The position numbers and the translations under genes are program-made. The notes beneath the pieces were generated by a model that saw only the letters and a list, made by a program, of their open reading frames with translations, was not told the DNA's origin and did no database searches. Of a stretch of 64,000 nucleotides of DNA, positions 5,988-62,191 are shown one piece after another; position 1 is the first letter of the stretch, and every line of letters starts with the position of its first letter. Origin of the DNA: Peptococcaceae bacterium UBA7702. Lineage in GTDB: Bacteria; Bacillota; Dehalobacteriia; UBA7702. The stretch covers positions 129,325-193,324 of the forward strand of contig DLGE01000007.1 of the NCBI GenBank assembly GCA_002482535.1, read 5' to 3'.

Positions 5988-7262
5988 ATGAAAGGCAAGA
6001 ACTACTGTAAACTGCACACGGAAGAGATGAAGCAGTATCCTCCTTTTACGTCCCAGTCGATCTTAACGACAAACAGCGACGTTACCGCCATGGCCGCAAA
6101 GCTCAACGAAATGGCGGACTTTACCAAAGAGGGGTTTCTCTTCAATCAAGTCCGGGAAGTGGTGGAAAAAGCCTATGACATCGGCAAACTGGTCGAAGCC
6201 CACCAGCTTTTCGGCGGCTACATCAACACCACCTTCGGCATTTACACGGAAAAAGAAGGCGCCATCGATACCTGGTTGATCCGCAAATATAAGCGGGGCA
6301 AGGAGTTGGATTCGCTGATGTTTGAACACAAATTGCTGATCCACGCCTACGACAATGGCTTCAGTTACGGTTGCCGCCCCATCGCCGCCAAAAACGGCGC
6401 GACCTACCATATAGAAAAAGAAGTCTACCCCACCGGGGAAGAAGACGCGATTTTCGCCGTCTTCAACTACCTTGACGGCATTTCCACCTACACTTGGCTG
6501 GGTAACTGGGCGGAACCGGAAATGCCGGAACATACCTTTTTAAGCGCCGCCCGCTCCATGGCGGAATTTCACAGCGCCATGAAAGGTTTCCATCCCGGAG
6601 AGCTCCACGGTGACAACATCATGGACAACGAAGACATCACCGTCAACGACCTGATCGCGAAATTCCCTGAAACCCTGAAACGCTTCCGTAAAAACTATGC
6701 AGAATCCGGCTTTGAAAATGTCTTTACCGATTTTTTTGACAGCAACTACGACTACTATCAAAAGATGTGCGAAGCGTCGGTCATTCCCGCCGAAGATTAT
6801 CAAAAGATGCACTATTGCGCCTGCCAGTGCGATTTCCATCCCGGTAATTTCAAATACGACGAAGAGGGGTACGTCACCGCCAGCTTCGATTACGATATGG
6901 CGAAAATGGATACCCGTCTCTTTGAAATCGGCCTCGGTATGCATTATTGCTTCGCTTCCTGGAAATGCAGCACCAACGGGATCATCCAACTGGAAAACGT
7001 TGAAAAATTCATTCGCCGGTATAACGCGGAGATCCAAAACATCGGCGCCATCGAACCGCTGAATGAAACAGAAAAGAAATACCTCTACGAAGTGATGGTT
7101 CAGGGTACCCTTTACGATATGGCCTGGTGCACTTCGGCCTGTGTCTATGACCCCAGCCTTGATCCTTACGAATACCTCTACTATATGCAGCACTTTTTAT
7201 TCTCTCTGCAATGGTTGGAAGCCCATGAGGCCGAAGTCAGAGCCATCGCCGGGAAAATCTGA
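5988..7262 (+). CDS. phosphotransferase-family protein (APH / choline-kinase / CotS-like small-molecule kinase fold)
   Basis: Contains the Brenner-type catalytic motif CDFHPGNF (HxDxxxxN) and a downstream DYD (DxD) motif. An N-terminal GGYINTTFG resembles the nucleotide-binding loop. 424 aa. Confidence 0.55.
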   Translation: MKGKNYCKLHTEEMKQYPPFTSQSILTTNSDVTAMAAKLNEMADFTKEGFLFNQVREVVEKAYDIGKLVEAHQLFGGYINTTFGIYTEKEGAIDTWLIRKYKRGKELDSLMFEHKLLIHAYDNGFSYGCRPIAAKNGATYHIEKEVYPTGEEDAIFAVFNYLDGISTYTWLGNWAEPEMPEHTFLSAARSMAEFHSAMKGFHPGELHGDNIMDNEDITVNDLIAKFPETLKRFRKNYAESGFENVFTDFFDSNYDYYQKMCEASVIPAEDYQKMHYCACQCDFHPGNFKYDEEGYVTASFDYDMAKMDTRLFEIGLGMHYCFASWKCSTNGIIQLENVEKFIRRYNAEIQNIGAIEPLNETEKKYLYEVMVQGTLYDMAWCTSACVYDPSLDPYEYLYYMQHFLFSLQWLEAHEAEVRAIAGKI

Positions 7263-7281
7263 GTCAAAGGAGAAAATCATC

Positions 7282-8712
7282 ATGAATCTTGCAGCACAAG
7301 TCAAAGTTTTAACCGCCGACCAAATGGCCACCGTCCACGAAAAAGCCCTGAAACTGATGGCGGAAAAGGGCATCGTTTTTCAAACCGACGACGCCGTGGA
7401 AACCTTCCGCAAACACGGCGCTAAAATCGAAGATCATACCGTCTTTTTTCCCAAGGAAATGGTGGAAAAGGCTCTGTCTCAAACACCCTCCACGTTTCTT
7501 TTGGAAGCGATGAACCCCAAAAAAAGCGTCACCGTGGGCGAAGGCTTATTGATCCATCCCGCCGGCGGCGAAGTTTTTGTGGCGGATTACAACGGCAGCC
7601 GCAGAGCACCGGCATTAAAGGATTTTGCCGATCTGCAAAAGGTCTATCAAGCTTGCGATAACATCAATATCGCCGGTTTTCAGCCTTTAAGCCCCATGGA
7701 TGTGGAAGAACGGGTGAAGGGACTCTATTGTACCTTGACGTCGATGCAACACTGCGACAAACCGATTTTAAGCCCCATGGAACTGGATACCGTCGAACAG
7801 AAAGAAGAGTGTCTGAAACTCTTCAATATCGCTTACGGCAAAGAAAATTATCTGGAGGATCATTACCTCACCTGGCACGCCGTTTGCCCCAACTCCCCCT
7901 ATTTCTATTCCGAATTCGCCTGCGAAGGCATCAAAGTCTACGCCGAACATAACCAGCCGGTGATTCTCGTATCGGCGCCGATGACCGGTATCACCTCTCC
8001 CGTTTACCTATACGCCACCGTGGTTTTGACCATGGCGGAACTTTTGGCCGGTCTCGTTTATGCCCAGTTGATCCGCCCCGGCGTGCCGGTGGTTCCCTCA
8101 GCCTCTCTGACTTACGGCAATATGCGCTATGCCACTTGGGAATGCGCCGCCCCGGACACCACCTTGATGCTGGCCGCCTCGATTCAGATGTTCCATGATT
8201 TCTATCAGCTTCCCGCCCGAGCGCAAACCGGCGTCACCAGCTCCAAAGCCATCGACTACCAGGCCGGCATGGAAACGATTCAGAGTTTCCTCGTTTCCGC
8301 CCTGGCCGGCGTCAATCTGACCAGCCAATCGGTGGGCACCTTAGCCAATTTAATGACTTCCTCCCTGGAAAAGACGGTTTTAGATGACGAAATGATCGCC
8401 AGGGTGCGCTACATCTTGAACGGTATGCAAACCGACGAAGCCAGCCTCGGCATGGACGACCTCTTAAACGCCCTGCCCTGCCAGGATTTCATGACCACCG
8501 AATCGACGCTGATGCACTTTAGAGACGGTTGGCAGCCCCTCGTTTCCGATTGGCGTTCCTATGACGCCTGGGAAAAAGACGGACAGGAAGACGTCACCGC
8601 CGTGGCCCACAGAAAAGTTGAAAACATACTGGAAAACGCCCCTGCCTCGTTGCTCGACGCGGAACAGGAGAAAGCCATGGCAGACTACATTCAGTCCATC
8701 GAAAGAAAATAA
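7282..8712 (+). CDS. MttB-superfamily methyltransferase without pyrrolysine (quaternary-amine:corrinoid methyltransferase type)
   Basis: MNLAAQVKVLTADQMATVHEKALKLMAEKGIVFQTDD... is colinear with the three other MttB-family ORFs in the window. RBS AAGGAG 9 nt upstream of the ATG at 7282 (the listed 7141 start is an upstream in-frame extension). The residue aligned to the Pyl site is an ordinary amino acid (…QTGVTSSKAIDYQAG…). Confidence 0.85.
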   Translation: MNLAAQVKVLTADQMATVHEKALKLMAEKGIVFQTDDAVETFRKHGAKIEDHTVFFPKEMVEKALSQTPSTFLLEAMNPKKSVTVGEGLLIHPAGGEVFVADYNGSRRAPALKDFADLQKVYQACDNINIAGFQPLSPMDVEERVKGLYCTLTSMQHCDKPILSPMELDTVEQKEECLKLFNIAYGKENYLEDHYLTWHAVCPNSPYFYSEFACEGIKVYAEHNQPVILVSAPMTGITSPVYLYATVVLTMAELLAGLVYAQLIRPGVPVVPSASLTYGNMRYATWECAAPDTTLMLAASIQMFHDFYQLPARAQTGVTSSKAIDYQAGMETIQSFLVSALAGVNLTSQSVGTLANLMTSSLEKTVLDDEMIARVRYILNGMQTDEASLGMDDLLNALPCQDFMTTESTLMHFRDGWQPLVSDWRSYDAWEKDGQEDVTAVAHRKVENILENAPASLLDAEQEKAMADYIQSIERK

Positions 8713-10349: not shown

Positions 10350-10452
10350 CCTCCGAAAATAGGATACCATAACCATACTTTTTTATCAAACAACGGTTGA
10401 TTTCATGTTCTAACAGGCGTATAATGAAGCCACTAAAAGAAGGAGCTTTTTC

Positions 10453-11161: not shown

Positions 11162-11508
11162 TAGTACCCATTTCAGCCGATTTTACGGACAAAATGCGGA
11201 TTTTTACGGACGCTGTAGCAGGGGCTGGACAATCAATGCACACGGTAAAGTGATAAAAAGCTCCAGTCACTGATTGGAACTGTACAAGTGATGGGTAGTG
11301 TTCATAACTATAAAACTTGTCCTTTGATAATGCATATGGTAAAATAACGAAAGACTGAACTTAATCAGCCTCCGGACGAGATGCGCCGTACCCGGTTTGA
11401 CGACGACGCACCGAAAGGAGTGCATCAATATATGAGTATGGTTATTCAAATTATCGGCTCGGTCGCCGTTCTTGCGGGCTTCGCACTTGCACAAGCGGGT
11501 GTCCTGAA

Positions 11509-12353: not shown

Positions 12354-13194
12354 TTAAGCGGCGGAGAGGGCTTGCTGTCTGTGAATTGCAGGCGGTAAGC
12401 CCTTAAGCTTTCTCTTGATGCGGCGGTTGTTGTAATAGTCAAGGTAGTCAATGAGTTCTCTTTTGAAATGCTCTATAGATTCAAAGTCCTGCAAGTACAA
12501 CAACTCACTCTTAAGCAGTCCGAAGAAGTTTTCAATCACGGCGTTGTCCAGACAATTACCTTTGCGGCTCATACTCTGATGGATGCCTTTTTTTGAGCAT
12601 CCTTTGATATTGCTTGTGCTGGTACTGCCAGCCTTGGTCGGAGTGGAGGATGAGGTTCGTTCCGTCAGGTATTTTCATGAAAGCCTTATCAAGCATTTCT
12701 GTCACCATTGACAGCACCGGCTTATCTGAGATCGAATAGCTCACAATATCTCTGCTACAGAGGTCAAGGATAGGTGACAGATAGAGCTTCTGTCCGAACA
12801 GGTTGAATTCCGTGACGTCGGTCACCCACTTCTGGTTTGGCATTGTTGCTTCAAAATCCCGTTCCAGCAGATTCGGCGCAGTTTTGCCCACTTCACCTTT
12901 GTATGACTGGTACTTTTTCATCCGAACCCGGCAGATGACCCCCATCTCTTTCATCAGTCGCTGTATCGTTTTATGGTTGATGCCATATCCTCGATTATGC
13001 AGTTCGTCCGTGATACGCCGGTAACCATATCGACCCTTGTTTTCAGCGTAAATTTCCGTGATCTGTTCTTTGATTTCGCTATACTTGTCCGGTTGGATTC
13101 TGCGTTTGGAGTGGTAGTAATAGGTGGCTCGGGGCAGACCGGATACTTCAATCAGGAGCGAAATTTTATGTTTATGCCTCAGTTCCCAGATCAC
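12354..13194 (-). pseudogene. IS3-family transposase OrfB (DDE integrase), disrupted by a +1 in an A-run
   Basis: …[21 protein letters not shown]| then a frame change then |[24 protein letters not shown]. Removing one A from the A7 run (plus-strand ttttttt at 12588-12594) restores [18 protein letters not shown], the canonical IS150-like sequence. Confidence 0.8.
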
Positions 13195-13544: not shown

Positions 13545-14050
13545 CCCAATCGTTATTCAGTATATCATACTGTCTAACTTTTGGGGTGCAGTTCATTTTG
13601 AGGAGCGTTTTTCTTTCAAGCCTGGGCTCTACTGACAACCGATCTTAATGATATGATGTCATCGATCTGCTGCCATATCAAAACATCCTCAGCGAGGCAT
13701 AATAATCGATGATTTTATCTGGATATCAAACATTGTTAGCGCTGATTTTTGTATAATATCAAACAAATCGCATTACAGTGTTTTTTTGTTGTGCCAATAA
13801 AAAAATTCTACATTTTTATTAAATATCTTGACTGTGGTGTTAGACCACGGTGTAACCTTAAAGAGGATAAAACTAAATTCAATCAATTCCTTAATGAAGG
13901 CTTTTGATGATGAAAATAATAACTATCCAATTAGTTCATAAATCCTTTTTTAAACAGAAAATGGAGAGGAAAGGAGGATCATGAAAGTAAATTGGGTAAA
14001 AAGGATTTATTGAAATTATAATAATTTGAAACTAGGAAGGTGGAATTATA

Positions 14051-15187
14051 ATGTCAGTTGGTACAAATGATGCAAGATTGCCACAAATGCTGGAGAAGCA
14101 TCAGATGAGCTACGTTAAAAGAGGACTCGCCGCCGGAATCTTCTCCGGTATGACTTGGGGTCTGCAAGGGGTTTTGTTAAATAGCTTAGTGCTTCATTTC
14201 GGACCGTTCCAAGTTACTACACAAGGTGCGTTTTATGCATCTTTGATTGCCGCAGTTGCTGTCGCGGCACTTCATGACTTTGTCGCGTCTTGTTGGATTC
14301 TCTTTTTTGACACCGTCACCGGTAGAATCAAGGAAATTCCCCGCGCATTGAAAACGAAACCTGGTCGCTTGGCGATATTTGCCAGCATCTTCGGAGGTCC
14401 CCTCGGCATGGGCGGTTATTGCATCGGTATGTATCTCGCCGGCGTAACCTATGCTCTTGCCATCTCCGCGATTTATCCCGCCATCGGCGCCATTCTTGGC
14501 CGCATTGTATTGAAGGAAAGAATTAACGCCCGTGTTTGGGTCGGCATCCTCGCCTGTTTGGCCGGTGCTGTTCTCGTGGGTTGGGCTCCTCCGGAAGCCG
14601 CAACCAGCGGTTTCCAGTTCTATCTTGGGATTGCTTTCTCTTGCGGCCCCGCCATTGGTTGGGCTGCGGAAGGTGTGATTGCCTGTTTTGGTATGGATAT
14701 GATCGACCCCGATATCGCAATCTGGATTCGCGAATTCTTTTCAAGCGTTATTGCTCTGTTCACAACCGTTATCGGCATCTCAATTTTCGCTACTGCCATC
14801 ACCGGTGGTACGGAAACCCTTATAGACGGCAGCACTTATGCTCTTCATTGGTATACCGGTTGGAAAATGTTTATTAGCGCATTTGGAAACGTTAACAGTT
14901 TGATCTGGATCATTATCACGGCGGCCTCAGGCGGTTTCTCCTATGTATTTTGGTATCGCGCCATCAACATGATAGGGACCGGGCGCGCAATGGCTTTCAA
15001 TGTAACCTATGCGTTGTGGTCTGTCCCTGCCGGTTATTTGGCAAACCTCATCACCTCTCTCTACGGTTGGGAAAACGGCTACGCCGCCACCGGCCTTGTG
15101 CTTGTGGGTGTTGCCGTTATCACCATCGGAGCGATTCTCGTTGTAATCAATCCGAAAGAACTGTTCCAGTTACGTAATGTGGCCTAA
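14051..15187 (+). CDS. 10-TM permease, paralog of 8736-9755 (possibly DMT-like)
   Basis: 378-aa hydrophobic protein sharing motifs with the 8736 ORF. RBS AGGAAGGTGG. Preceded by a 10-codon uORF with a perfect SD at 13981-14013. Confidence 0.5.
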   Translation: MSVGTNDARLPQMLEKHQMSYVKRGLAAGIFSGMTWGLQGVLLNSLVLHFGPFQVTTQGAFYASLIAAVAVAALHDFVASCWILFFDTVTGRIKEIPRALKTKPGRLAIFASIFGGPLGMGGYCIGMYLAGVTYALAISAIYPAIGAILGRIVLKERINARVWVGILACLAGAVLVGWAPPEAATSGFQFYLGIAFSCGPAIGWAAEGVIACFGMDMIDPDIAIWIREFFSSVIALFTTVIGISIFATAITGGTETLIDGSTYALHWYTGWKMFISAFGNVNSLIWIIITAASGGFSYVFWYRAINMIGTGRAMAFNVTYALWSVPAGYLANLITSLYGWENGYAATGLVLVGVAVITIGAILVVINPKELFQLRNVA

Positions 15188-15202
15188 GGAGGGATGATTA
15201 AA

Positions 15203-18265: not shown

Positions 18266-18428
18266 AAAATCTCCTCCCGTCACTTCCTTATACGAATCGT
18301 ATAACATAGGGACAAAAAAATCAACTATTTACGGACTGAAATCTCAACTTTCTTATTTTAGAATGAAAGCAGAACAAGAGATGTACATCACCTGAAACAT
18401 TTTAACTACAAAATTGGGAGGTAGTACC

Positions 18429-19664
18429 ATGAACGCTGAACAAAGACTTGCAGAAAAGTCTCAAAGAATCAAAGATGTTGTCGCCTTAAAGGAACCCGAC
18501 AGAGTCCCCTTTGCCCCAAAAGTCGGCAACTACTATGCGCGCGGCTATGACATATCCATGTACGACGCCATGAAAGACATCAGAAATATCGGCCCCGGCG
18601 TTTATCAATTCCTGGAAGATTTCGATCCCGACCTTGCCTGGGCTCCCGTGCTTTACCCTGCCGACCCCCCGGAAGCGATGGGCAGCACCTATCTGAAAGT
18701 ACCGGGCCCCAACAGCGGCCTCGGCCTCGACGAATCCTTCCAAATCGGCGATAAATTCTTCCTGATGGACGATGAATATGATGAATTCCTCCATGACCCC
18801 AGCCATTTCATGCTGACCAAAGTATATCCCAGAAAATTCAAGGAACTGGAACCTCTGTCCAAAGTCTGTTTCCAAACACCGGTGGAATACGCGCTTTATA
18901 TCGAAAACAGTGTTTTCGCCCAACCCGATGTACAGCAGGCTTTGGAAGCCTTGAAACGCGGCGGCGAGGCTTCCGCCAAATGGCTTAACGGCCTCATGGA
19001 AATCGTCGGCAATATCGCCCAGCGGGGCTTTCCCCTCGGCGCTGCCGGTGCCACCACCTGCGCCTTCGACATGTTCTCCGACAACATCCGTGGCCTGATC
19101 AATTCCATTTCCGATATTTACGCCCGGCCTGATCAGCTCCTGGCCGTCATCGACTACATGACGGAGGTCTGCATCGCAAAAGCCGTGGGAACCTGCAAAG
19201 GGCTGAACCTCGACTATCTTTTCATTCCCCTCCATGCCGGTGTCGACGAATTCATGAGCAGGGAAAACTACAGAAAATTCTACTGGCCCTGCCTGCAAAA
19301 ATTGATGCTTGCCCTGATTGATATTGGCGTAACGCCCTATGCTTTCTGCGAAGGCAAATACAATACGCGCCTGGATATCATCAAGGAAGTACCCAAAGGC
19401 AAAGTCATCTACATGTTTGAAGAAGTGGATATCGCCAACGCCAAAAAGGTTTTGGGCGATACCGCCTGCATCTGCGGAAATCTATCCACGGCCCTTTTGG
19501 CTTACGGCAAAAAGGAACGCGTCGTCGAAGAAACAAAGCGACTCCTCGATACCTGCGCTCCCGGAGGCGGTTTTATCATGGACTGCTCCATTGTTTTGGA
19601 TAACGCCAAACGCGAAAACATGGAGGCATGGTACGAAACCACCATGGAATACGGCAAGTATTGA
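18429..19664 (+). CDS. uroporphyrinogen-decarboxylase-fold methyltransferase (MtaA/MtbA/CmuA family; methylcorrinoid:THF or :CoM methyltransferase type)
   Basis: MNAEQRLAEKSQRIKDVVALKEPDRVPFAPKVGNYYARGYDI... with a URO-D-like fold. GGGAGG lies 7 nt upstream of the ATG at 18429. Confidence 0.8.
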   Translation: MNAEQRLAEKSQRIKDVVALKEPDRVPFAPKVGNYYARGYDISMYDAMKDIRNIGPGVYQFLEDFDPDLAWAPVLYPADPPEAMGSTYLKVPGPNSGLGLDESFQIGDKFFLMDDEYDEFLHDPSHFMLTKVYPRKFKELEPLSKVCFQTPVEYALYIENSVFAQPDVQQALEALKRGGEASAKWLNGLMEIVGNIAQRGFPLGAAGATTCAFDMFSDNIRGLINSISDIYARPDQLLAVIDYMTEVCIAKAVGTCKGLNLDYLFIPLHAGVDEFMSRENYRKFYWPCLQKLMLALIDIGVTPYAFCEGKYNTRLDIIKEVPKGKVIYMFEEVDIANAKKVLGDTACICGNLSTALLAYGKKERVVEETKRLLDTCAPGGGFIMDCSIVLDNAKRENMEAWYETTMEYGKY

Positions 19665-23934: not shown

Positions 23935-24120
23935 CTGCTTTCTCCTTTTGACGTATTGTCTCCCTAAGTATATCCTTCGTCAAATTTCCTGTCAATCCGC
24001 CTTTTTCCATGGTAAAATAGAAAACGTAACCGGCAGTTGACAAAAAACAACGCACCCTTGGTAGATTGACCGGCGGCATTTTTGCTAAAATAACCATGAA
24101 AAAGAAAGGAAGTGAACCCG

Positions 24121-24738
24121 ATGAAGATGGGAGACAGAATTCAAGCTCTGCGGAAAGCAAAAGGCCTTTCCCAGGAACAACTCGCCGAAAAAATCGGCGT
24201 TTCCCGGCAAGCGGTATCGAAATGGGAAAGCGAACAGAGTATCCCGGAACTGGATAAAGTGATGATGCTCAGCGATTTTTTTGATGTTACCACCGACTAT
24301 CTTTTAAAGGGCGTTGCCATTGAGTCCCCCTCGGCGGCGAAAAAAATAGATGCCCACATCTTTATGATGGCAGCCACGGCCCTAAACTTCATGGGCCTGA
24401 TCATCGCCGCTGCCGTTTGGTATGAAGAGCAGGTCGCCATGGCCCTTGTGATCGGACTGATCTTTATCGCTTTGGGCGTCATGGTTTTCGGCATTGGCCT
24501 TTATAGTTCCAGTGAACAGTCAAAAGCACCGGCAAAACGGAGTTTTTGGCTGATCAATATTTGGATCATCCCTTTTATTCCCCTGGCTTTTGTTTACAAT
24601 ATTTTGGTCAGCGGTCTTATTGCTCCTTATCCCCTGCTGGTAAATTCCTTTTTCTATCTGGGCCTTTTCTGGCTTGTCTATTTTGCCATCGGCCTGACCG
24701 TCGTTTACCAGCTGCTGAAAAAGAAAAATAAGGTATAG
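24121..24738 (+). CDS. XRE-family HTH regulator with C-terminal membrane domain; TAG stop
   Basis: [51 protein letters not shown]… followed by four hydrophobic helices. Confidence 0.7.
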
Positions 24739-28816: not shown

Positions 28817-30289
28817 TTATTTGGCCCAGGCCTCTCTGGCTTCGGTGATGATGCGGTCCAAGGCTTTGGCGGTACTTTCGTCCAACGCGGCGGGCTTATG
28901 ATTTTTTAGGATATGCTGCATTTCTTCGGTGGCCCGGGCAGCGAGGTCCTGGCCGCCGTCGGCTTTCCACTGTCCGTAGGGACGGCGATCAAAAAGCCGG
29001 GTATAAGACTGTTCCTCCCGCATGTGCTTTAAAGTATGTTCTTCCTGGAGGAAGTGGCCGCCGCAACCCACTTGACGCAGGACATCCACGGCCATGGTTT
29101 CATCGTTTACCGGAATGCCGCCGATGATCTTCCTTACCATCTTGGCAAGTTCGTTATCAATGACAATCTGGCTGAAATCAAGGGTCATGCCCAGGTCGAT
29201 CATGCCCAAACCGTAGATCATGTTGGCGCCTGCCAACGCTGCCATCAGCATGGACATGGTTTTTTCGAGACCGGCCTGTTCATCAAGGCATTTGCTGTCC
29301 GTCTATGAACCCGCGACATAACTGGGAATTTTATAAAACTGCGCCAGGCGGGCCACGGCAGCGCTAAGCATCGCCAATTCAGGACAGCCAATGGTGGCGG
29401 TGGCGGAGCTTAGATCCATGATCGTGGTGGAACTGCCGTAAAGATTCGGTGCGCCTTTTTTCACCGCCTGACCCAAAACGATTCCGGCCAGCACTTCGGC
29501 ATTGTGGGTCACAAGGGTTCCCGCCAATGTTACGGGACTGGTGCCGCCAGCCATGGCCATAGATAACACGGTACAGGGCGCGTTGTTTTCGGCATAGACA
29601 ATGATCGGTTCCGTGGTTTCCGGAGAAATTGTCAGGGGACTGGTGGGACAGACCACCGTGGAGGCTACGGGACGGCGGGCAAAAGCCTCTTTGCCACCGG
29701 CCACGGCGAAAGCCATTTCCATGAATTTTTCCGCCTCCCGGCGGCTGTGGGCGCTTTGGGTACAGTGCTTGGTGGAATGGCTTGCCATCGCCTGATAGCT
29801 GGCCAGATTACCGATTTCAGGGGGAAGATCGCGGCATTCCACCGCCACATCCAAAAGATCGTATTGTGCCAAAGCGTCGACGAGAATCGCCACCCGCACC
29901 TGATCCTCATAACAGGAGGGACGGTATGCCCCGGTATCAGGATCGACGACATTGACGCCTTTGCTGAAATTGCAGAAGTTAACCCTGGTTCCTTCGAGGT
30001 GAAGGTCATTTTTGGGATCGCGCCCCGCCAGCAATACCGAAGCGGGAGTGGAGATGATGGCGTCTTCCACGACGTGGGCCGGGATATAGATCATGTGATT
30101 GGCGGCATCAACGGTACAGCCAACACCCTCATAGTAAGCCTGGGCTTCCCTACAAACGGTTTTGATTCCCGTGTGCCAGAGGACTTCCAAAGTAGCTGCG
30201 TGAATCTGTTCCAGGGAAGCCGGAGAGAGGCCAAAAAGACCGAAACCGCGGATATCCTCCACACCGCTGCTGATCAAACGTCTGCTCAT
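28817..30289 (-). CDS. mttB: trimethylamine:corrinoid methyltransferase MttB, with an in-frame amber (TAG) codon at 29303-29305 (codon 329 of 490), predicted pyrrolysine
   Basis: The listed ORFs 29303-30289 and 28817-29257 are in the same frame and separated only by TAG. The flanking sequence …KIPSYVAGS[TAG]TDSKCLDEQAGLEKTMSMLMAALAGAN… is colinear with …FGLAGATDSKTLDAQAAMEV… in the paralog at 33188, and with the paralog at 30294. TAG to the C-terminus is 161 residues, the same as Pyl334-to-end in 495-aa Methanosarcina MttB. Translationally coupled (AAAGGAG RBS, ATG 4 nt after the TGA) to the upstream paralog. TAA stop. Confidence 0.65.
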
Positions 30290-30293
30290 CTTG

Positions 30294-31781
30294 TCAACTC
30301 CTTTCAGGGCCTAAGGGCAGTGAAACAATATCCATGGCCGCCATAATTTCAGTCATTGCGCCATCGAGTTTCACCGCGGTATCTTGCGTGAGGGCGGGAA
30401 TCTCATGATGCTCCAAAATAGCGGTGACTTGCGCTTTGGCTCTGGCGAAAATATCACTGCCGCCCTGTGCTTCCCAGGCGTTTCTATTCTTTTTATCGAT
30501 GACCAACGGGGGAATATAGAGCTCCTCTTTAAAGTGACGCAGCGTGTGCTCGGCGGACATATAATCGCCGCCGGGGCCCAAGGCGTCGATGAGGTCAAGA
30601 CATAACGTTTCGTCGTTGACGGCAAAGCCCTTTTGCAGCCGTTTGGTCATCGCCACGATTTCATGGTCAATGACCAGTTTTTCCAAACTGAAGGTGTTGA
30701 CAAAATCGAGCATACCGGGACCGGCGATGACATGCAAACCGCCGGCAGCGGCCAACAGGGCGCTGAAGGCCGTCTCCAGCCCGGCCTGGGCATCGACGGT
30801 TTTGGCGTCGGCCAGACCGGCGTAAGTATGACAGGGCATCCCGTAATAACGGGCCATTTGAGCGTAGGCCGTGCTGATCAAGTTCGTTTCCACGGCATTC
30901 AGCGAAGTGGTGCTAAAACGCATATCAAAGGTCATCGGCGCGCCGCCGAAGATCATCGGATTGCCGGGATTGACACTCTGGGCCAGGACGATACCGCTTA
31001 ACGTTTCCGCCACATGAATCAAGAGGGAACCGGCAAGGGTCGCCGGTGATACGGCGCCGGGCATGGGAACGGAGATCGTTTCCATGGGCAACCCCAGCTT
31101 TGCACAGTCGATGATGTTATGACAGCTGATATGGGTCCATTTCAGAGAGGGAGAAGAACAGATGTCAAAGAAGGCCAGAGGCTTTTCACGTAAAGCCGCT
31201 TCGCTGCCGCGAATCTGCGTCAATAACTTGGCAATATTGGCGACGCCTTCGACGTCAAAGGCTCCTACGGCCATGGGTTTTACCGTATTTTTCAATAACA
31301 GATAGACCCGGTAACAATCGGCAATCTTTTTGGGTACGTCAGCCAAAGAAACGGCGGTGCTTTGAATGGGGAAGTTTTCCAGCCCGTCACAGAGACGGTA
31401 AATCTTAACGATATCGCCGCTCACCGCCGGTCTCGCGGTGCAGTTGTCGCTTTCCAAAAAATTGAGGCCGGCGGAACCGGGATCAAAGTAGCAGTTCTCG
31501 CCTCCAATGGTGATGGGATTTTCCCCTTCGCGGCCAAAAAGCTCAAAGGTTTCCGGTACGGAAGACAGGGATTTTTCCACCAGTTCTTTGGGGAAACGGG
31601 CGATTTTTTGGTCAAAATCGACGCTACACCCCGCATCGCGGAGAATGGTCAAAGCCTCCTCACTATCGAAAAACACGCCGGTTTTTGCCAATACTTTTAA
31701 CGCCGCCTCGTGGATTTTCAGAATATCTTCTTCCTTCAGAAACCGCAAAAGGGGCTGATGCTCCAATGTAAATTTTGACAT
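30294..31781 (-). CDS. MttB-superfamily methyltransferase, non-Pyl paralog (495 aa)
   Basis: MSKFTLEHQPLLRFLKEEDILKIHEAALKVLAKTGVFFDSEEALTILRDAGCSVDF… has Leu at the Pyl-equivalent position (…YAGLADAKTVDAQAG…). TGA stop. Confidence 0.85.
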   Translation of the reverse strand: MSKFTLEHQPLLRFLKEEDILKIHEAALKVLAKTGVFFDSEEALTILRDAGCSVDFDQKIARFPKELVEKSLSSVPETFELFGREGENPITIGGENCYFDPGSAGLNFLESDNCTARPAVSGDIVKIYRLCDGLENFPIQSTAVSLADVPKKIADCYRVYLLLKNTVKPMAVGAFDVEGVANIAKLLTQIRGSEAALREKPLAFFDICSSPSLKWTHISCHNIIDCAKLGLPMETISVPMPGAVSPATLAGSLLIHVAETLSGIVLAQSVNPGNPMIFGGAPMTFDMRFSTTSLNAVETNLISTAYAQMARYYGMPCHTYAGLADAKTVDAQAGLETAFSALLAAAGGLHVIAGPGMLDFVNTFSLEKLVIDHEIVAMTKRLQKGFAVNDETLCLDLIDALGPGGDYMSAEHTLRHFKEELYIPPLVIDKKNRNAWEAQGGSDIFARAKAQVTAILEHHEIPALTQDTAVKLDGAMTEIMAAMDIVSLPLGPERS

Positions 31782-31814: not shown

Positions 31815-33107
31815 TTAGGCGGCGTCTGTTACGCCTTCCCCCTGTTTTGCCGCAGCTCTTCTCTTTTTGATGCGGGAAATCAGGATCATGGTGACGATGA
31901 AACCAAGGATACCGATGCCCAGCATGTAGCCGAACATGATCTTATAGCCGGTAATTCCGGGATAGGTATCCATCCAATGGCCCACCAGTGTGTAAACAAA
32001 GGCTTCGGGAATGAAGCCGATGAAGGAAGCGAGACCGATGGCGGCGCCGGTATATTGTAGCGGGATCATCAGTTCATCGACGACGGCAAAGTAAACGCCG
32101 CGGGTGAGGAACACGGAGAAAGCCAGCACAACCATGGCGGCGGTGGCAAGCCAAAGGAAAGATGCTTGCGCCGGAATGATCAAATAAGCCAATACGGCGA
32201 GGGCAGCCACAAAGATCGCAACTCGCAACACCCGGGCGCTGGAGCCCCTTTTATCCGCCCAGATCCCGGCGATGGGGCCGCCGAAAATGGCGATGAAATA
32301 CGTCCGCATCAAGGCAATGAGAGCAGCCAACGACGCACTGGCGGCGAACATTTCGGTGAAATAGGGTGTGATATAGCTCTGGGTGCAATATAAGGTGTAG
32401 CAGCAAAAGATAACGATTGCCAGCAACCAAAGATCGGGTATTTTAAGGACATAAAAAATTTCTTTGAATAAATGATGCTTTTCTCCCCCGGTTTCGGAGG
32501 AGATATTTTCCACTTTGGTTTCTTTGAAAAAGAACAAAAGCAAAAGTGCGGCAACCGTAACGACACAGGAATATGCAATGATCGCCCCACGAATCCCGGC
32601 AATTTCACCGCCGAGGTAGTTGAACAGCCAGAGAATGGCAACGCCCCAAAGCATGGGCAAGAGGCCGCGGCCACCTTCCAAAAGACCGAAAAGTTTGCCC
32701 TGGATTTCACTGCCCCCAGCCATCCGGGTGGCTTTCAACATGGCGGCCCAGAAAATCAGGGAAGTGGTAACCCCCCAAAGAATATAGATGATCAGATTTG
32801 CCATGTAGGAGGGAAACGTCGCCGAGTAAAAGCCCAATGCCGCCGTGGCGAAGAGGGCAAAAACCATCAGTTTTTTGCAGGAAATCTTATCGGCGAGCCA
32901 GCCACCGGGAAAATAGCAGATCATCGCCGTGATGCCATAGGCGCTCATCAACGTGCCATAAGCGGTATTGTTCAGCCCAAGAGCCGCCTGGAGGGCGTCG
33001 TAATAATAATAACGCAAATAAGGCAATTCATAGATCGCGCCGCCGGCCAACATCAAAAGAAGGAGCACCAGGATTCTTCTGGAATTGAATATGGATTCTT
33101 TTTTCAT
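31815..33107 (-). CDS. MFS transporter (12 TM)
   Basis: 430-aa hydrophobic protein with an MFS-like two-half organisation. Sits between two MttB-family genes. Confidence 0.8.
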   Translation of the reverse strand: MKKESIFNSRRILVLLLLMLAGGAIYELPYLRYYYYDALQAALGLNNTAYGTLMSAYGITAMICYFPGGWLADKISCKKLMVFALFATAALGFYSATFPSYMANLIIYILWGVTTSLIFWAAMLKATRMAGGSEIQGKLFGLLEGGRGLLPMLWGVAILWLFNYLGGEIAGIRGAIIAYSCVVTVAALLLLFFFKETKVENISSETGGEKHHLFKEIFYVLKIPDLWLLAIVIFCCYTLYCTQSYITPYFTEMFAASASLAALIALMRTYFIAIFGGPIAGIWADKRGSSARVLRVAIFVAALAVLAYLIIPAQASFLWLATAAMVVLAFSVFLTRGVYFAVVDELMIPLQYTGAAIGLASFIGFIPEAFVYTLVGHWMDTYPGITGYKIMFGYMLGIGILGFIVTMILISRIKKRRAAAKQGEGVTDAA

Positions 33108-33187: not shown

Positions 33188-34639
33188 TCATTGATGATTT
33201 TCAATAGACCTTTCATACCGCGCTTCCGCCGCCGTGACAATGCCGTCAAGTTTCGCCAGTACGCTATCGTTTAAAGGTTCCGGGTGATGATTTTTCAGCA
33301 AATGAGTGATCTTTTCATTGATGCGGTCCGCCATCGTCTTTTTGCCTGCGGCGAGCCAGCCATTGTAATCCTGACGAATCCCACAGAATGGTACGTATAA
33401 TTCCTTTTGGAAATTGTCAAAGGTATGCTGGGCGGCGAGAAAGTTGCCGTTGGGACCCACTTCGTCGATGACGTCGGCGGCAAAACCGTTCTCATCGGTA
33501 GCAAAGCCCTGAGTTAGCCTTCTGGCGTAGCCCGCCACTTCTTCACAGAAAACCATCAGTTGCAGGGAACCGGTCATGCCCACATCGGACATGCCGAAGT
33601 CGTGAATGAGGTTGGCCCCCATCCCAATATCGGCAATGATTTCCGCGGTGACTTCCATGGCCGCCTGGGCATCGAGGGTTTTGCTGTCCGTGGCGCCGGC
33701 CAAACCGAAGCTGGGGATGCCAAAGGAGCGCAGCATTTGAGTACCGGCGCCGTCCATTAAGAGCATTTCAGGGCTGCCGTAAGCGGCCTGGAAGGATTTC
33801 AGATCAAGGACGCCCCCGTTGGAGCTGCAAATGATCGGCGCCCCCTCCCTGACCAGCTGGGAAATGACGACACCGCAAAGGACGTCGGCCAAGCCGATGG
33901 TAAGGGCGCCGGCTAAGGTCACCGGCGCGGTGCCGCCGAAGGTCATCCCCGGGGAATAGACCAGGGGCAGCCCCTTTTTCGCCATATACATCAACTTTTC
34001 CAGGGCCTCTTTGGAGTGAGCCAGGGGTGTGGTGGGTTCCGCGTATACGATGATGTTAGGCTTCCGGCGCAAATTCTCTGCGCTGCCGGCCACGGCTTCC
34101 GCCATGGCAATGATATCTTTTAGATTATCCACGTTGAAGGACCATGTCAAGAGGGGCTTGGCACTGTTTCTCAGCAGCGCGTCGACTTCGTGAACGTCGG
34201 CCAACTGAGGTGTTTTATCGCTGATCATACATAAGGACATCAGAAAATCGATATTCTTCAGGGCGTCGGCGACGGTGGCAGTGGCAACAACATCGTCCTT
34301 TACCGCAAGGCGGCGTTCCAGAGTCATGGGATCTTGAAAATAGGGACAGGTAACACCGGGGCCAAAATAGCTGTTGCGCCCGGTCAATTCCATGGCAAGA
34401 TCACCGTAACGGTTGAAAATATCGATTTTTGACGGTGCGGTCGCCAAGGCCTTTTCCGTCAATGATCGGGGAATGCTCACTAAGTTTGTATCGGACACCT
34501 TTGCCCCCGCTGCTTTCAGCAAAGCAAGGGCTTCCGGGCTGTATACCCGTGAGCCGGTTCTTTCCATTAATTGAAACGTCGCTTCCTTTACCTGCTCCAT
34601 CTCTGCTGGAGATAACAGATCAAAATGAAAATTAGCCAT
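33188..34639 (-). CDS. MttB-superfamily methyltransferase, non-Pyl paralog (483 aa)
   Basis: MANFHFDLLSPAEMEQVKEATFQLMERTGSRVYSPEALALLKAAGAKV… RBS AGGAGA. Divergent from the MerR gene. Confidence 0.85.
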   Translation of the reverse strand: MANFHFDLLSPAEMEQVKEATFQLMERTGSRVYSPEALALLKAAGAKVSDTNLVSIPRSLTEKALATAPSKIDIFNRYGDLAMELTGRNSYFGPGVTCPYFQDPMTLERRLAVKDDVVATATVADALKNIDFLMSLCMISDKTPQLADVHEVDALLRNSAKPLLTWSFNVDNLKDIIAMAEAVAGSAENLRRKPNIIVYAEPTTPLAHSKEALEKLMYMAKKGLPLVYSPGMTFGGTAPVTLAGALTIGLADVLCGVVISQLVREGAPIICSSNGGVLDLKSFQAAYGSPEMLLMDGAGTQMLRSFGIPSFGLAGATDSKTLDAQAAMEVTAEIIADIGMGANLIHDFGMSDVGMTGSLQLMVFCEEVAGYARRLTQGFATDENGFAADVIDEVGPNGNFLAAQHTFDNFQKELYVPFCGIRQDYNGWLAAGKKTMADRINEKITHLLKNHHPEPLNDSVLAKLDGIVTAAEARYERSIENHQ

Positions 34640-34781
34640 GATTATCTCTCCTAACTTTTCGTGAAATTACTGCTTTTTGTCCAAAAGATTCAGATCGTTG
34701 CAACGGCATCTGTTGACTCTTCTCACTCCGGAGTATATACTATTCCACAGAGGGAGAGTCAAGAGAAAAGGAGAAATAATT

Positions 34782-35588
34782 TTGAGCAAATTATTTTCCA
34801 TCGGCACCGTGGCCAAAATGAAGGGCGTTTCCGTCAAGATGCTGCGGCATTACGACGAAATCGGCCTTTTAAAGCCCCGTTACGTGGACCCGGATACAGG
34901 GTACCGCTATTATGAATCAAACCAACTGCTGTTCATCGAATTCATCACTTTTTTTCGCCGGGGCGGCGCCTCTTTAGAAGAAATTTCCGCCGCCTGCCAA
35001 GGGGACAACGCCTTGGCCATCGCCGATTTTTCGGCCCGGCAAATCCACCGGGCCCAGCAACAGATCGATCTACTGAATGAAGCCATCACCTGCTATCAAG
35101 GGCTTTGCGACAAAATCTATAACGACGTGGCCCATGCCAAAAACGACGGCGTCTATTGGCAAAGGATCCCGGAAAGGGACGTCATCAAACACAATGTGGG
35201 CAACCGTATCATCACCGAAGACGACGTCTACGATTGTTTTTGGGACGTCTACAAGGAAATCCGCGTCCACAATTTAAAGACCCTCTACGCCACCGGCAGC
35301 ATCGTCGTGATTCCAGAGCATAAGGATACGGCGGAACTTTATTACACGGATATTTTCTGCGACGCAGCCTTGGGTAAAACTTCCTTCTTCGCAAAGATAG
35401 AAACCATACCACAGGGGGAGTATTTATGTGTAAATTATCAGAAAAATAACAAGAAAACACAGATCAATTTGATCAAGAACGCCATTGCCAAAATGAACCA
35501 ACCGCCAAAGCTCTGCATTGAAGTGGATACCTTCACCAAAGTCACCACCTGGGTCGATCCCCTTTACGAGTTGCAGGTACTCTTTTAA
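34782..35588 (+). CDS. MerR-family regulator with GyrI-like effector domain (TTG start)
   Basis: (M)SKLFSIGTVAKMKGVSVKMLRHYDEIGLLKPRYVDPDTGYRYYESNQL is the MerR HTH. AAGGAG sits 8 nt before TTG. Confidence 0.7.
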   Translation: MSKLFSIGTVAKMKGVSVKMLRHYDEIGLLKPRYVDPDTGYRYYESNQLLFIEFITFFRRGGASLEEISAACQGDNALAIADFSARQIHRAQQQIDLLNEAITCYQGLCDKIYNDVAHAKNDGVYWQRIPERDVIKHNVGNRIITEDDVYDCFWDVYKEIRVHNLKTLYATGSIVVIPEHKDTAELYYTDIFCDAALGKTSFFAKIETIPQGEYLCVNYQKNNKKTQINLIKNAIAKMNQPPKLCIEVDTFTKVTTWVDPLYELQVLF

Positions 35589-36252: not shown

Positions 36253-37377
36253 ATGTCATTTCCATTGCCCCCCTATCATGAACCGGATTTTCAAAGGGAG
36301 CCCCTGAAAAGCGCCGGTGACGCTTGTTACGCCTTGTCGCCCAAGGACGGCGTGGCGCCGGAGAACTACCACGCCACAACGATTTTCCCGGAATACTTCA
36401 AAATCAACGGCGCCTGGCGTTTGGCGGAGGAATCCCGCATGGACTGCGTTGCCGTTTTAAAAGATGAGGCCGTCCACATCGTTGAATTCCGCAATCTTAA
36501 AAAAGGTGATAAGGTTTTCGTCGGCCGTAGAGAGAACGGGGAAGACGGTATCTTCGTGTATCCCGACGGCTTTCGGGAACAAAGGGACGACACAGGAGAA
36601 ACCTTCGCCTTTCGCCAGCGCCGCTCCAGGGAAACAGCCTTTTCCAAGGATTATGACAGCATTTACGAACTGCTGCGCCATGAAAGGGACCACGGCCATA
36701 TTCTCTGGGTATTAGGCCCTGCCTGCGCCTTTGATGCGGACAGCAGGGACTCCTTCGCCCAACTGATTCGTAACGGCTATGTCCACAGCGTATTGGCGGG
36801 GAACGCCCTCGCTACCCACGATCTGGAGGCAGCTTACAAAGGAACTGCCCTGGGTCAGGATATTTACAGTCAAAAGAGCCTGCCTTTCGGCCACTACAAT
36901 CATATCGACACCATCAACAGAGCGCGGTTTCACGGCTCCATCGAGGCTTTCATCGCCGGGGAAAGCCTCGATAACGGCATCATCTGTGCCTGCGTCGAAA
37001 GAAACATTCCCTTCCTTTTGGCCGGTTCCATCCGAGACGACGGCCCCCTACCCGGGGTTTACGCCGATGTCTACAAAGCCCAGGACCAGATGCGCGCCGC
37101 GGTAAAAAAGGCCACGACGGTGATCTGCTTGGCCACCACGCTCCATGCCATTGCCACCGGGAATATGACGCCGTCTTTTTGCGTTTTAGAGGATCATACC
37201 ATTCGTCCCGTCTATTTCTATATTGTGGACATCTCCGAATTCGCCGTCAACAAACTGAGCGACAGAGGCAGCCTCGCCGCCCGGGGCGTCATCACCAACG
37301 TCCAAGATTTCATCGTCAATCTCCGCAAGGGCATCGTGGATCCGGCTCTCGGGGAAAACAAAGGCAACCACCACTGA
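36253..37377 (+). CDS. LOR/SDH-domain protein (TIGR00300-like; ornithine-cyclodeaminase/ArgZ-N-domain-like), tentative
   Basis: 374 aa. The fold assignment is from recalled similarity only. RBS GAAAGGAGG. Confidence 0.4.
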   Translation: MSFPLPPYHEPDFQREPLKSAGDACYALSPKDGVAPENYHATTIFPEYFKINGAWRLAEESRMDCVAVLKDEAVHIVEFRNLKKGDKVFVGRRENGEDGIFVYPDGFREQRDDTGETFAFRQRRSRETAFSKDYDSIYELLRHERDHGHILWVLGPACAFDADSRDSFAQLIRNGYVHSVLAGNALATHDLEAAYKGTALGQDIYSQKSLPFGHYNHIDTINRARFHGSIEAFIAGESLDNGIICACVERNIPFLLAGSIRDDGPLPGVYADVYKAQDQMRAAVKKATTVICLATTLHAIATGNMTPSFCVLEDHTIRPVYFYIVDISEFAVNKLSDRGSLAARGVITNVQDFIVNLRKGIVDPALGENKGNHH

Positions 37378-45768: not shown

Positions 45769-47838
45769 TTATGCTTCTTTGCCTTTTTGGGCATAGAATT
45801 CTTTTGTCACGGCAAAGAAGGTGTCGATATTTTCCCAAGGCGTCAGGGGCGGAATATCGCAGCCGGAGGATATGACGAAATTCGGATGGGAGGTACATTC
45901 CTCCAGTACTTTCAGGGTGGCTGCTGACACAGTTTCAGGCGTCCCCTGGAGGAACACGCCGGCGGGATCGACGTTGCCTAAGACGAGGACATCATCGGGC
46001 ATCTTGCCGACAGCCTCCTTCATATCAATGCCGTTGCCGAAATGATAACCGGCGGCGTTGGACATCAAAATCGTGGGCAGCATCTTCACAGCCTCATTGC
46101 CGCAGTTATGATAGATCACGATAAAATCATCATCGGTCACGGCGTTGACGATGCGCCGGACATAGCGGGCGGAAACTTTCGTCGCCAAGTCCGGCGAAAG
46201 GATCCCGGCCAAAGGCTCGGCAATCACGATGCCATGAGCGCCGGCTTCCTTATAAGCCAAAGCATAATCGATGAGGAATTCCGTGACTTTTTCCAAAACA
46301 GTATGCACCATTTGCGGTTCGGTATAGCAGTAGACCATGATCTCATTGACATCCATCAGGCGGCCGGCCAAAGAGAAGGGACCGATGCAACCGGCGAACA
46401 CCGGCCGGTCGGTGACCAACTTCACGGCCCGGGCCACGGCGGCAATATTGATCCCCGTTCTGCCGCTGCCGATTTCAGGGATTTCCAGGGCTTCCGCTTC
46501 CACCTGGGAGGAAATGATTCTCCCGGTTACCGTAGGCACCTCGTCATCGGAAAAGACGATATGGGAGCCGAAGGCTTCCGCTTCCACGGAAAGATCCATC
46601 TGGCTGACGATGGCGGAGGAATCACAGTGTTCGGAGATCATTTTCATACCGATGGCCTGGAGACGGCTGTCCATAATCAATTCTTTGACCGTGATGCCCA
46701 TCATTTGGATCACCGGGAAGGACAGTACCGGGAAAGGCTTTTTCACAGGGGAGGCAATCATATCGGCGACCCACTGTTTCATATCGCGGCGATATTTCTT
46801 TTCCGTATCTTCATCACCGCGGTTCTTACCTTCGCGATCATATTCCGCGACCGCCGCAAAGAAAGCGTCGATGTTTTCCCAAGGCGTCAGGGGCGGAATG
46901 TCGCAGCCGGAGGATATGACAAAATTCGGATATTTGCCGCATTTTCGCAAAAGGTTTAACGTCGTTTCCCGGACTGTTTCCGGGGTGCCTTGACGGAACA
47001 CGCCGGAGGGATCGACGTTACCGAAGACAACGACGTCTTCCGGCATCTGCGCCATGATCTTTTCCATATCAACGCTGTTGCCAAAATGGAACCCGGCGGC
47101 ATTGGTGGATATCAGAGAAGGAATCATTTTGCCCGCTTCGTTGCCGCAGTTATGATAGATCACAACAAAATGCTCGTCGGTAACGGCTTGGACGATTTTA
47201 CGCACATAATAAGAAGATACGGTTTGCGCCAAGTCCGGGGAAAGGACGCCGGCCAAAGGTTCGGCAATGATGACACCGTTGGCCCCCGCCGCTTTTAAGG
47301 CCAAGATGTAATCGGTGATGAAATCCGTGACTTTGCGCAATACCGTATGAACCATTTGAGGTTCGGTATAGCAATAAATCATGATTTCATTGACATCCAT
47401 CAAGCGGCCGGCCAAAGAGAAGGGACCGATGCAGCCGGCAAAGACAGGGCGGTCGGTGATCCATTCCACGGCTTTTTTGATGGCGTCGATATTGACGCCG
47501 GTACGGCCACAACCTACGGGAGGAACGGTCAGAGCATCGGCTTCCACCTGGGAGGAGATCACTCTTCCCCTGACCGTCGGCACCTCGTCATCGCTGACGA
47601 CGATATTGGAACCAAAGCATTCCGCTTCCACGGAAAGATCCATCAGACTAACGGCGGCGGCGGTATCCACCCGGTCCGCCACCATTTTCATGCCTTTGGC
47701 ATAAGTGTCGCCGTCGGCAATCAGCTCTTTTACGCTAATTCCCATAAGCTGCACGGCGGGAAAGGACAAAACCGGCAAGGGTTTTTTGGTGGGTTTTGCG
47801 ATCTGTTCGCTCATCCATCTCTTCATGTCTCTCTTCAT
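45769..47838 (-). CDS. tandem-fused double MtaA/URO-D-like methyltransferase (two complete ~340-aa domains in one 689-aa protein)
   Basis: Domain 1 runs MKRDMKRWMSEQIAKPTKKPLPVLSFPAVQLMG…PPLTPWENIDAFFAAVAEY. Domain 2 runs RDMKQWVADMIASPVKKPFPVLSFPVIQMMG…PPLTPWENIDTFFAVTKEFY. The halves are about 70% identical. AGGAGG sits 10 nt before the ATG at 47838. Confidence 0.8.
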   Translation of the reverse strand: MKRDMKRWMSEQIAKPTKKPLPVLSFPAVQLMGISVKELIADGDTYAKGMKMVADRVDTAAAVSLMDLSVEAECFGSNIVVSDDEVPTVRGRVISSQVEADALTVPPVGCGRTGVNIDAIKKAVEWITDRPVFAGCIGPFSLAGRLMDVNEIMIYCYTEPQMVHTVLRKVTDFITDYILALKAAGANGVIIAEPLAGVLSPDLAQTVSSYYVRKIVQAVTDEHFVVIYHNCGNEAGKMIPSLISTNAAGFHFGNSVDMEKIMAQMPEDVVVFGNVDPSGVFRQGTPETVRETTLNLLRKCGKYPNFVISSGCDIPPLTPWENIDAFFAAVAEYDREGKNRGDEDTEKKYRRDMKQWVADMIASPVKKPFPVLSFPVIQMMGITVKELIMDSRLQAIGMKMISEHCDSSAIVSQMDLSVEAEAFGSHIVFSDDEVPTVTGRIISSQVEAEALEIPEIGSGRTGINIAAVARAVKLVTDRPVFAGCIGPFSLAGRLMDVNEIMVYCYTEPQMVHTVLEKVTEFLIDYALAYKEAGAHGIVIAEPLAGILSPDLATKVSARYVRRIVNAVTDDDFIVIYHNCGNEAVKMLPTILMSNAAGYHFGNGIDMKEAVGKMPDDVLVLGNVDPAGVFLQGTPETVSAATLKVLEECTSHPNFVISSGCDIPPLTPWENIDTFFAVTKEFYAQKGKEA

Positions 47839-48239
47839 AAACAACATACCTCCTCTTTCTCTTCAATACTCTCATACTCTCTTTTTTTCTCTTTCCGTCT
47901 TTGTAACATCTCTCACTGTTGCATATGATATATAAAAGGCGCTCCAGTTTATTAAGCCGCGCGCCTTCATACCGTTATGTCGAATCCATTGATTGGTCTT
48001 TTCTGTAGTATATCCTTGGTGTCGATTTTTGTCAATCGGTTTCCCTGAGGAACATATGAGATTAAACCATAACAAAGAAATTCAACCAAATGTTTATTCT
48101 AAGAGCGGCTATTTCGACAATCCCTGTGGTGGTCTTTGTTTTCCTTACCCATACCGCAAAACACCGGGATTTTATTTGGTTTTCCGCTAAAATTATGCTA
48201 TAATGCGTTGTATATCCCATAAAAGCAAGGAGTTTCCCC

Positions 48240-55501: not shown

Positions 55502-55514
55502 TTCACCTTCTGCC

Positions 55515-56888: not shown

Positions 56889-56908
56889 ATCGTTTCTCCT
56901 TATCTTCT

Positions 56909-62184: not shown

Positions 62185-62191
62185 TTCCTCC

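Follow-up and report, generated by a model that had tools for sequence, protein, structure and literature searches.

MttB-superfamily proteins without pyrrolysine that act on quaternary amines include MtgB (glycine betaine) and MtcB, MtpB, and MtyB of Eubacterium limosum. The pyrrolysine (Pyl) branch of the superfamily is represented by the trimethylamine (TMA) methyltransferase MttB of Methanosarcina barkeri, an enzyme of 495 residues whose catalytic pyrrolysine is Pyl334 (PMC9842639). Among bacteria, Candidatus Formimonas warabiya DCMF carries 82 MttB-superfamily genes, seven with Pyl, and proteomics has detected some (PMC9768040); a gut catalogue records Pyl-mttB in Bilophila and 407 further bacterial genomes, describing the same gene-truncation problem as is met below (PMC10653893). 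The occurrence of bacterial Pyl-MttB beside non-Pyl paralogs is already documented, and the only unusual feature of the locus described here is its clade-specific operon layout. This locus lies in a stretch of 64,000 nucleotides (hereafter the window) of contig DLGE01000007.1, from the metagenome-assembled genome (MAG) of Peptococcaceae bacterium UBA7702, a spore-forming member of the Clostridia. It holds an MttB-family gene, mttB (30289→28817, minus strand), with an apparent stop codon that, to judge from the comparisons below, is almost certainly read as pyrrolysine, making this a working bacterial TMA methyltransferase gene and not a broken one.

The mttB frame of 491 codons consists of 328 sense codons, TAG at codon 329, 161 sense codons, and a terminal TAA (28817-28819), and the read-through open reading frame (ORF) encodes 490 residues counting Pyl329. 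Translation revealed one internal stop and no frameshift, and Pfam MTTB (PF06253) covers residues 21-482 as one stretch across the TAG (E = 2.9e-101). A preliminary description of this DNA had named the TAG as the only interruption and had equated the 161 residues between TAG and the C-terminus with the tail of the Methanosarcina enzyme. The translation bears out the former, and the latter is exact (495 minus 334). Gene callers divide mttB into ORFs of 328 and 146 amino acids (aa). The flanking genes have consecutive NCBI accessions, HMM06183.1 (30294-31781) and HMM06184.1 (27534-28673); therefore, the Pyl-mttB is apparently without a protein record in the deposited MAG and seems to have been left unannotated or marked as a pseudogene.

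A phmmer search against solved structures returned the TMA methyltransferase of M. barkeri (PDB 7XCL, 7XCM, and 7XCN) at E = 1e-104, aligned end to end. Residue X329 of the query falls on X334, the pyrrolysine of 7xcl_A, within a motif that reads PSYVAGS-x-SDAK in the structure and PSYVAGS-x-TDSK in the query. The TAG thus sits at the Pyl site of characterised MttB, and its flanks are colinear with the intact paralogs of the window, both as had been proposed. The active-site residues Tyr364 and Met249 of the M. barkeri enzyme are kept as Y359 and M244; the three non-Pyl paralogs of the window have no Tyr364 equivalent. On TIGR02369 ('trimeth_pyl'), the NCBI equivalog model of Pyl-MttB, the read-through protein scored 643.5 bits, above the cut-off of 525, and the paralogs scored 431.5 (30294-31781), 354.3 (33188-34639), and 292 bits (7141-8712), all below it. 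At the level of sequence, mttB is a member of the Pyl-dependent MttB family.

The window gene resembles M. barkeri mttB in fold family, UAG column, 161-residue tail, the motif PSYVAGS-Pyl-(S/T)D(A/S)K, and the residues equivalent to Tyr364 and Met249. It differs in being bacterial rather than archaeal, with ~41% identity to a Methanosarcinaceae locus, and in lacking an adjacent mttC or mttP. In addition, the downstream methyl acceptor in a bacterium cannot be coenzyme M.

Conservation of the TAG was evaluated in 13 homologous loci sharing 58-97% aa identity with mttB: 12 from GTDB species-representative genomes and one from an ENA contig (87%). Among them are a Clostridiales MAG (95%) that came from an anaerobic membrane bioreactor, Ca. 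Cryptoclostridium obscurum (82%), Ca. Formimonas warabiya (L006; 65%), and a Desulfosporosinus (62%). All 13 have TAG at codon 329 followed by an open frame, and those that were read to the end all close with TAA, ~160-170 codons past the TAG. Because the lone stop in a 490-codon frame is a TAG on the one Pyl column, and the same codon recurs in all 13 related loci, this placement is more than chance. The Formimonas gene shares not only the identical TAG codon but also truncated calls and a genome that holds Pyl and non-Pyl paralogs together. Of the best 120 protein-database matches to mttB, ~80 are truncated calls, 317-333 aa long, whose last codon precedes or reaches the Pyl residue position.

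Selection on the tail was estimated from pairwise comparisons. For the 161 codons after the TAG, the ratio of nonsynonymous to synonymous rates (dN/dS) was 0.10 against the 95% ortholog (L014) and 0.13 against the 87% ortholog (L002), with a proportion of synonymous differences (pS) of 0.33-0.51; upstream of the TAG, dN/dS was 0.05-0.06. A ratio of ~0.1 at this level of synonymous divergence indicates that the tail is translated. These data bear on the simplest alternative, that of a plain nonsense pseudogene in which a recent TAG mutation killed one redundant MttB paralog. Such an origin would fit the division of the gene by gene callers, the apparent gap in the NCBI proteins between consecutively numbered flanks, and the fact that no pyl genes occur in the region read (see below). 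However, the TAG occupies the sole catalytic Pyl column of a frame with no other stop or frameshift, is shared by homologs that show partial or full saturation of synonymous sites, and is followed by a constrained sequence; a second gene family of the same genome also has TAG at its own Pyl site. As a single stop and a clean, constrained tail have been kept through large divergence, we regard the pseudogene explanation as extremely improbable and effectively refuted. The preliminary description had noted that a TAG at a non-conserved position would point to such a pseudogene; the position is conserved in 13 of 13 loci, and the part downstream of it is under purifying selection.

Termination at UAG could also be the normal outcome, giving a 328-residue fragment and perhaps a separate 146-residue fragment from the ATG at 29257, the two acting together or not at all, and no pyrrolysine. 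An in-frame ATG 15 codons past the TAG does open an ORF of 146 aa, and UAG serves as a true stop in at least two window genes. Under this model, however, the 15 codons from TAG to ATG (TDSKCLDEQAGLEKT) would be untranslated, although they are among the most conserved of the family and include the invariant residues K333, D336, Q338, A339, and E342. The split enzyme would also be without its catalytic residue, and purifying selection is continuous across the junction. We consider regular termination very unlikely. The 87% relative (L002, on a 2.65-Mb contig) has a second split MttB gene at 13760-15199 (calls of 318 and 141 aa), 2.3 kb downstream of the ortholog; a sigma-54 activator and an amino-acid permease adjoin it, and pheA occupies the equivalent place in the window.

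The sequence read for this genome comprised the 64-kb window and ~21 kb of flanks (L016 and L018), ~85 kb together. The window also corresponds to bases ~54,871-118,870 of a 248-kb ENA contig (ERZ17807429, NODE_52), and its sequence occurs as well in an NCBI TPA MAG named 'Clostridiales bacterium' and in Logan run SRR5320873. Locus L018 is 100% identical in nucleotides to window positions 52192-64000 and extends 9.5 kb beyond the window. At L018 5891-7951, ~1.6-3.6 kb past window position 64000, it contains an mtbC-like corrinoid-protein gene and then mtbB, a dimethylamine methyltransferase gene, with a sigma-54 activator upstream. The mtbB gene (L018 6560-7951), ~1.6 kb past the window end, consists of 349 codons, TAG, 113 codons, and TAA, and scores 492.2 bits on TIGR02368 ('dimeth_PyL'; Pfam PF09505), for which the cut-off is 369.1. 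Its homologs in L007 and L011 are 349-aa ORFs ending in TAG, gene calls also split those in L019, L020, and L022, and L006 and L009 contain further homologs. The presence, in the same genome, of an unrelated mtbB with TAG at its own Pyl site is independent evidence for decoding of UAG as pyrrolysine by the host. Among the ~60 genes read, in-frame TAGs were found only in mttB and mtbB, each at the known Pyl site. Three further long TAG read-through frames occur in the window; the two that were checked are antisense to confirmed genes and are taken as spurious, and the third is 849-1577.

Read-through might instead place a residue other than pyrrolysine at the UAG; a suppressor tRNA could, for example, supply a canonical amino acid. 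Indeed, the closest full-length homologs (46-54% identity: P0009, P0010, P0019, P0024, and P0039), all of which keep the Tyr364 equivalent, have Ser, Trp, Gln, or Leu at the Pyl column; the fold thus tolerates canonical residues, and the failure to find pyl genes in the region read is compatible with this alternative. However, if a lineage used a canonical residue here, fixation of a sense codon would be expected, as happened in those homologs. Codons for these four residues can differ from TAG by one base (P0009, encoded at L031 2608-4080, has TCG), and their sequences look like those of lineages that swapped pyrrolysine via a single substitution. Moreover, every in-frame TAG in the genes read falls on the Pyl site of one of two unrelated families of Pyl enzymes, the protein scores above the cut-off of the Pyl-specific equivalog model, and pylT and pylSBD lie alongside the gene in more distant relatives that share the TAG. 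Insertion of a different residue therefore appears highly improbable.

Several observations weigh against decoding as pyrrolysine in a TMA methyltransferase. ARAGORN found no tRNA-Pyl, and predicted no tRNA at all, in the window or in the flanks L016 and L018; since tRNA-Pyl(CUA) was recovered from six control loci, the negative can be relied on within the region read. Pfam scans of ~50 ORFs revealed none of pylS, pylB, pylC, and pylD, and PylS searches using the D. hafniense and Formimonas PylSc returned none tied to the clade in the best 120 of ~3,700-4,100 matches. Within the active site, Gly110-Thr111 of the M. barkeri enzyme is replaced by Ser109-Lys110; the contacts of Gly110-Thr111 are reported to be made via the main chain (PMC9842639), so the replacement is not decisive. 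No corrinoid (B12-binding) protein was found among the scanned window ORFs of at least ~140 aa, in or beside the operon or elsewhere, and the nearest corrinoid gene seen is mtbC, ~35 kb from the operon and ~3 kb past the window end; in the relatives L025, L028, and L031, a corrinoid-protein gene adjoins the mttB homolog. The last point concerns stop codon usage. The stops of 45 window genes are TAA (25), TGA (18), and TAG (2), a depletion of TAG with P = 0.003 if 20% is expected. However, TAG makes up just 8% of off-frame stop triplets, and against a null based on off-frame trinucleotides the depletion is not significant (P = 0.27). The scarcity of TAG stops is at most weak support for Pyl decoding. 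The two TAG-ended genes encode a YbaK-type Cys-tRNA(Pro) deacylase (9857-10393, minus strand) and a helix-turn-helix regulator (24112-24738, plus strand), with backup in-frame stops 7 and 3 codons after the TAG, respectively.

Further searches for the decoding machinery were likewise negative. A tblastn search with D. hafniense PylSc gave no match in the window or in loci L001-L015, and neither the search of all representatives nor the cluster listings linked a PylS to the clade. Candidate PylS proteins P0249, P0242, P0251, P0137, P0448, and P0458 were rejected as coming from unrelated organisms, their neighbours mtbB, mttB, or hyuA/hyuB being only 32-58% identical to those of this genome. Also rejected, as a PylD, was the ArgZ-like protein encoded at 36253-37377 (plus strand), near the MttB cluster and after a type II dehydroquinase gene: it is a putative nickel-pincer-nucleotide-dependent ornithine cyclodeaminase variant (NF052526; 600 bits, cut-off 440). 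Elsewhere, the genomes of Formimonas and Zhaonella each contain both the TAG homolog and pylS. In L028 (contig JBFOMT010001571), a 62% homolog of mttB, split into calls of 328 and 146 aa, lies directly upstream of tRNA-Pyl(CUA), pylS, pylB, and pylD. The preliminary description had proposed that the host possesses a pyl system. That proposal stands as far as the second Pyl-type gene, mtbB, and the co-occurrence of pylS with 62-65% homologs reach; the pyl genes themselves were not found in the window and ~21 kb of flanks. A host system of tRNA-Pyl, PylS, and PylBCD is strongly but only indirectly supported, by mtbB and by the pyl operons beside homologs elsewhere.

In other lineages (L020, L022, L025, and L028), a pyl operon with tRNA-Pyl stands directly beside mtbB or mttB. 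The order of pylS, pylB, pylC, and pylD varies among pyl clusters, and several clusters are without pylC. Eubacterium limosum is known for its many non-Pyl MttB paralogs and is usually described as lacking a Pyl-MttB. A PylS large subunit is annotated in this species on a 4.74-Mb contig (P0241 / P0409, WP_133968747.1).

Overall, it is very probable that 30289→28817 is an intact, expressed mttB whose UAG is translated as pyrrolysine by tRNA-Pyl(CUA) and PylS encoded elsewhere in the genome. We infer TMA as the substrate, and the identities of the corrinoid and second-methyltransferase partners, from sequence relationships. By homology with the M. barkeri enzyme, Pyl329 would bind and activate TMA; a partner protein would then accept the methyl group on its Co(I) corrinoid, from which a second methyltransferase would pass it into C1 metabolism. 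A candidate for the methylcorrinoid-dependent second methyltransferase is the 692-aa protein listed in Table 1, which scores above the cut-offs of NCBIfam PRK06252 and TIGR01463 and may be linked to mttB. A divergent, single-domain relative of this protein is encoded at 18414-19664 (plus strand).

The ATG of mttB (30287-30289) is separated by a 4-nt spacer from the TGA of the upstream paralog (30294-30296), and a Shine-Dalgarno sequence, AAAGGAG (30299-30305), lies within the final codons of that paralog, 8 nt ahead of the ATG. Together these features suggest that mttB shares a transcript with the paralog before it, to which it may also be translationally coupled. It closes a four-gene, same-strand cluster, mtxB, MFS, mtxB, mttB(Pyl), where mtxB denotes a non-Pyl paralog and MFS a major facilitator superfamily transporter; this gap and the Pfam matches agree with the earlier placement of mttB next to one paralog and in a cluster with an MFS permease and a third family member. 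A MerR regulator precedes the cluster in divergent orientation, its true start probably being later than 34677 (the deposited call is 268 aa). Four species of this clade (the window, L014, L002, and L003), with GC contents of 43-56%, share every gene of the arrangement MerR plus mtxB-MFS-mtxB-mttB(Pyl) in this order, each with the same 4-nt junction before mttB and none with a corrinoid-protein gene in the operon. By contrast, the loci of Formimonas, a Desulfosporosinus, and two other Bacillota have the order mtxB - mtbB(TAG) - mtbC - mttB(TAG). This order was seen in L006, L007, L009, and L011 (~4.8-11.5 kb in each).

Table 1. Coordinates of mttB and associated features in the 64,000-nt window.
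Feature	Position	Strand	Basis
mttB, predicted pyrrolysine-type trimethylamine:corrinoid methyltransferase	28817..30289	-	Pfam MTTB, PDB 7XCL alignment, TIGR02369
Predicted pyrrolysine codon, in-frame UAG (residue 329)	29303..29305	-	aligns with X334 of 7xcl_A
Rfam PYLIS_3 (RF02510) match	29206..29305	-	71.5 bits, gathering score 38
Intergenic junction upstream of mttB	30290..30305	-	read from sequence
Non-Pyl MttB-superfamily paralog, mtxB	30294..31781	-	Pfam MTTB; Leu (CTG) at Pyl column
MFS transporter between two non-Pyl paralogs	31815..33107	-	Pfam MFS_1; no specific NCBIfam assignment
Non-Pyl MttB-superfamily paralog, first gene of operon-like cluster	33188..34639	-	Pfam MTTB; Ala at Pyl column
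MerR-family regulator, divergent from cluster	34677..35588	+	Pfam MerR
Fourth MttB-superfamily paralog	7141..8712	+	Pfam MTTB; Val at Pyl column
692-aa protein, two tandem URO-D / MtaA-CmuA-family domains	45769..47847	-	Pfam URO-D in 2 stretches

The usual mark of the non-Pyl MttB superfamily is an MTTB fold whose Pyl column holds a sense codon; on this basis the window's three intact paralogs belong to it at the sequence level, and the TAG gene does not. Their Pfam MTTB E-values range from 1e-83 to 1e-100, and they are 27-31% identical to the TAG gene. One of them, the fourth family member of the window, had escaped the preliminary description; it is flanked by an APH-family kinase and an EamA transporter, and its deposited call of 476 aa starts near 7282. 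Window paralogs are equally far from MtgB (PDB 2QNE/9YCE) and from MttB (~239 versus 236 bits and ~198 versus 199 bits), and quaternary-amine demethylation by these proteins, as had been suggested for the locus, is a family-level expectation. The operon layout might reflect a stepwise pathway in which a non-Pyl paralog demethylates an imported quaternary amine (e.g., tetramethylammonium to TMA) and the Pyl enzyme then uses the resulting tertiary amine, possibly one other than TMA. We consider this proposal rather doubtful; if true, Pyl-independent and Pyl-dependent enzymes of one superfamily would be joined by the direct passing of a metabolite.

A PYLIS-like structure 3' of the UAG had also been raised in connection with this gene. 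The Rfam PYLIS_3 model does match, with its position 1 on the UAG of mttB, and it also matches the non-Pyl paralog at 30294-31781 at 29 bits, with CUG at position 1. The helices in the mttB match were flagged as non-canonical; RNAalifold of 13 orthologs gave a weak consensus (-9.5 kcal/mol), and the single-sequence fold had z = -1.9. The only hairpin with double changes is a 6-bp stem-loop, GUUGGC-AGGC-GCCAAC (29222-29237, minus strand), 66-84 nt past the UAG, in codons for ALAGAN (alignment columns 69-84). These changes, G-C to A-U on both sides, fall at synonymous sites and track the GC content of the genome. A functional PYLIS RNA structure is therefore unsupported, the apparent compensatory changes being confounded by genome GC content, and no conserved stem-loop accompanies the match, which rests on conserved coding sequence. 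According to a passage in PMC3639795, a PYLIS structure is not present in all Pyl genes, and the lack of a supported structure in mttB agrees with the doubts published there.

The analysis recovers an enzyme gene that standard annotation splits or drops, and it leaves pyrrolysine biology as known unchanged. It indicates that a clade of Clostridia likely uses an expanded genetic code able to remove TMA. The latter is a precursor of trimethylamine N-oxide (TMAO), which is linked to cardiovascular disease, and catalogues of TMA-consuming gut bacteria gain from correctly called Pyl genes. The operon, joining a Pyl enzyme, two non-Pyl paralogs, and a transporter, provides a concrete case for cooperation between branches of the MttB superfamily. 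The clade occurs in anaerobic digesters and includes Ca. Cryptoclostridium obscurum, which was named from chicken-gut MAGs and is among the human gut taxa in PMC11629153. No functional information was found in the literature on 'Cryptoclostridium'.

Other features of the window include a tmRNA gene at 10763-11111 (plus strand, 166 bits), followed ~240 nt later by a guanidine-III riboswitch (11350-11412, plus strand; 44.7 bits, gathering score 36), and a fragment of an integrase-core (rve) transposase at 12556-13194. The minus-strand region 51613-56981 encodes A and B subunits of a hydantoinase/oxoprolinase and a UbiD-family decarboxylase, then a 188-aa ORF without a family match; among named NCBIfam models, the A subunit best matches the caprolactamase alpha subunit, but its 495 bits fall well short of the cut-off of 1000. 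A 409-aa protein encoded at 50387-51616 (minus strand) combines an O-methyltransferase dimerisation domain with DUF2284, and has partial matches, far below cut-off, to the NCBIfam DUF2284 selenoprotein models (MbdU, ArsM-DUF2284). Finally, a cobalamin riboswitch (59795-59973, minus strand; 110 bits) lies upstream of genes for a double-ATPase ABC protein and a CbiQ-type transmembrane component (57500-59720, minus strand), which together resemble a system for the uptake of corrinoids or cobalt; genes for corrinoid-dependent methyltransferases abound in this region.

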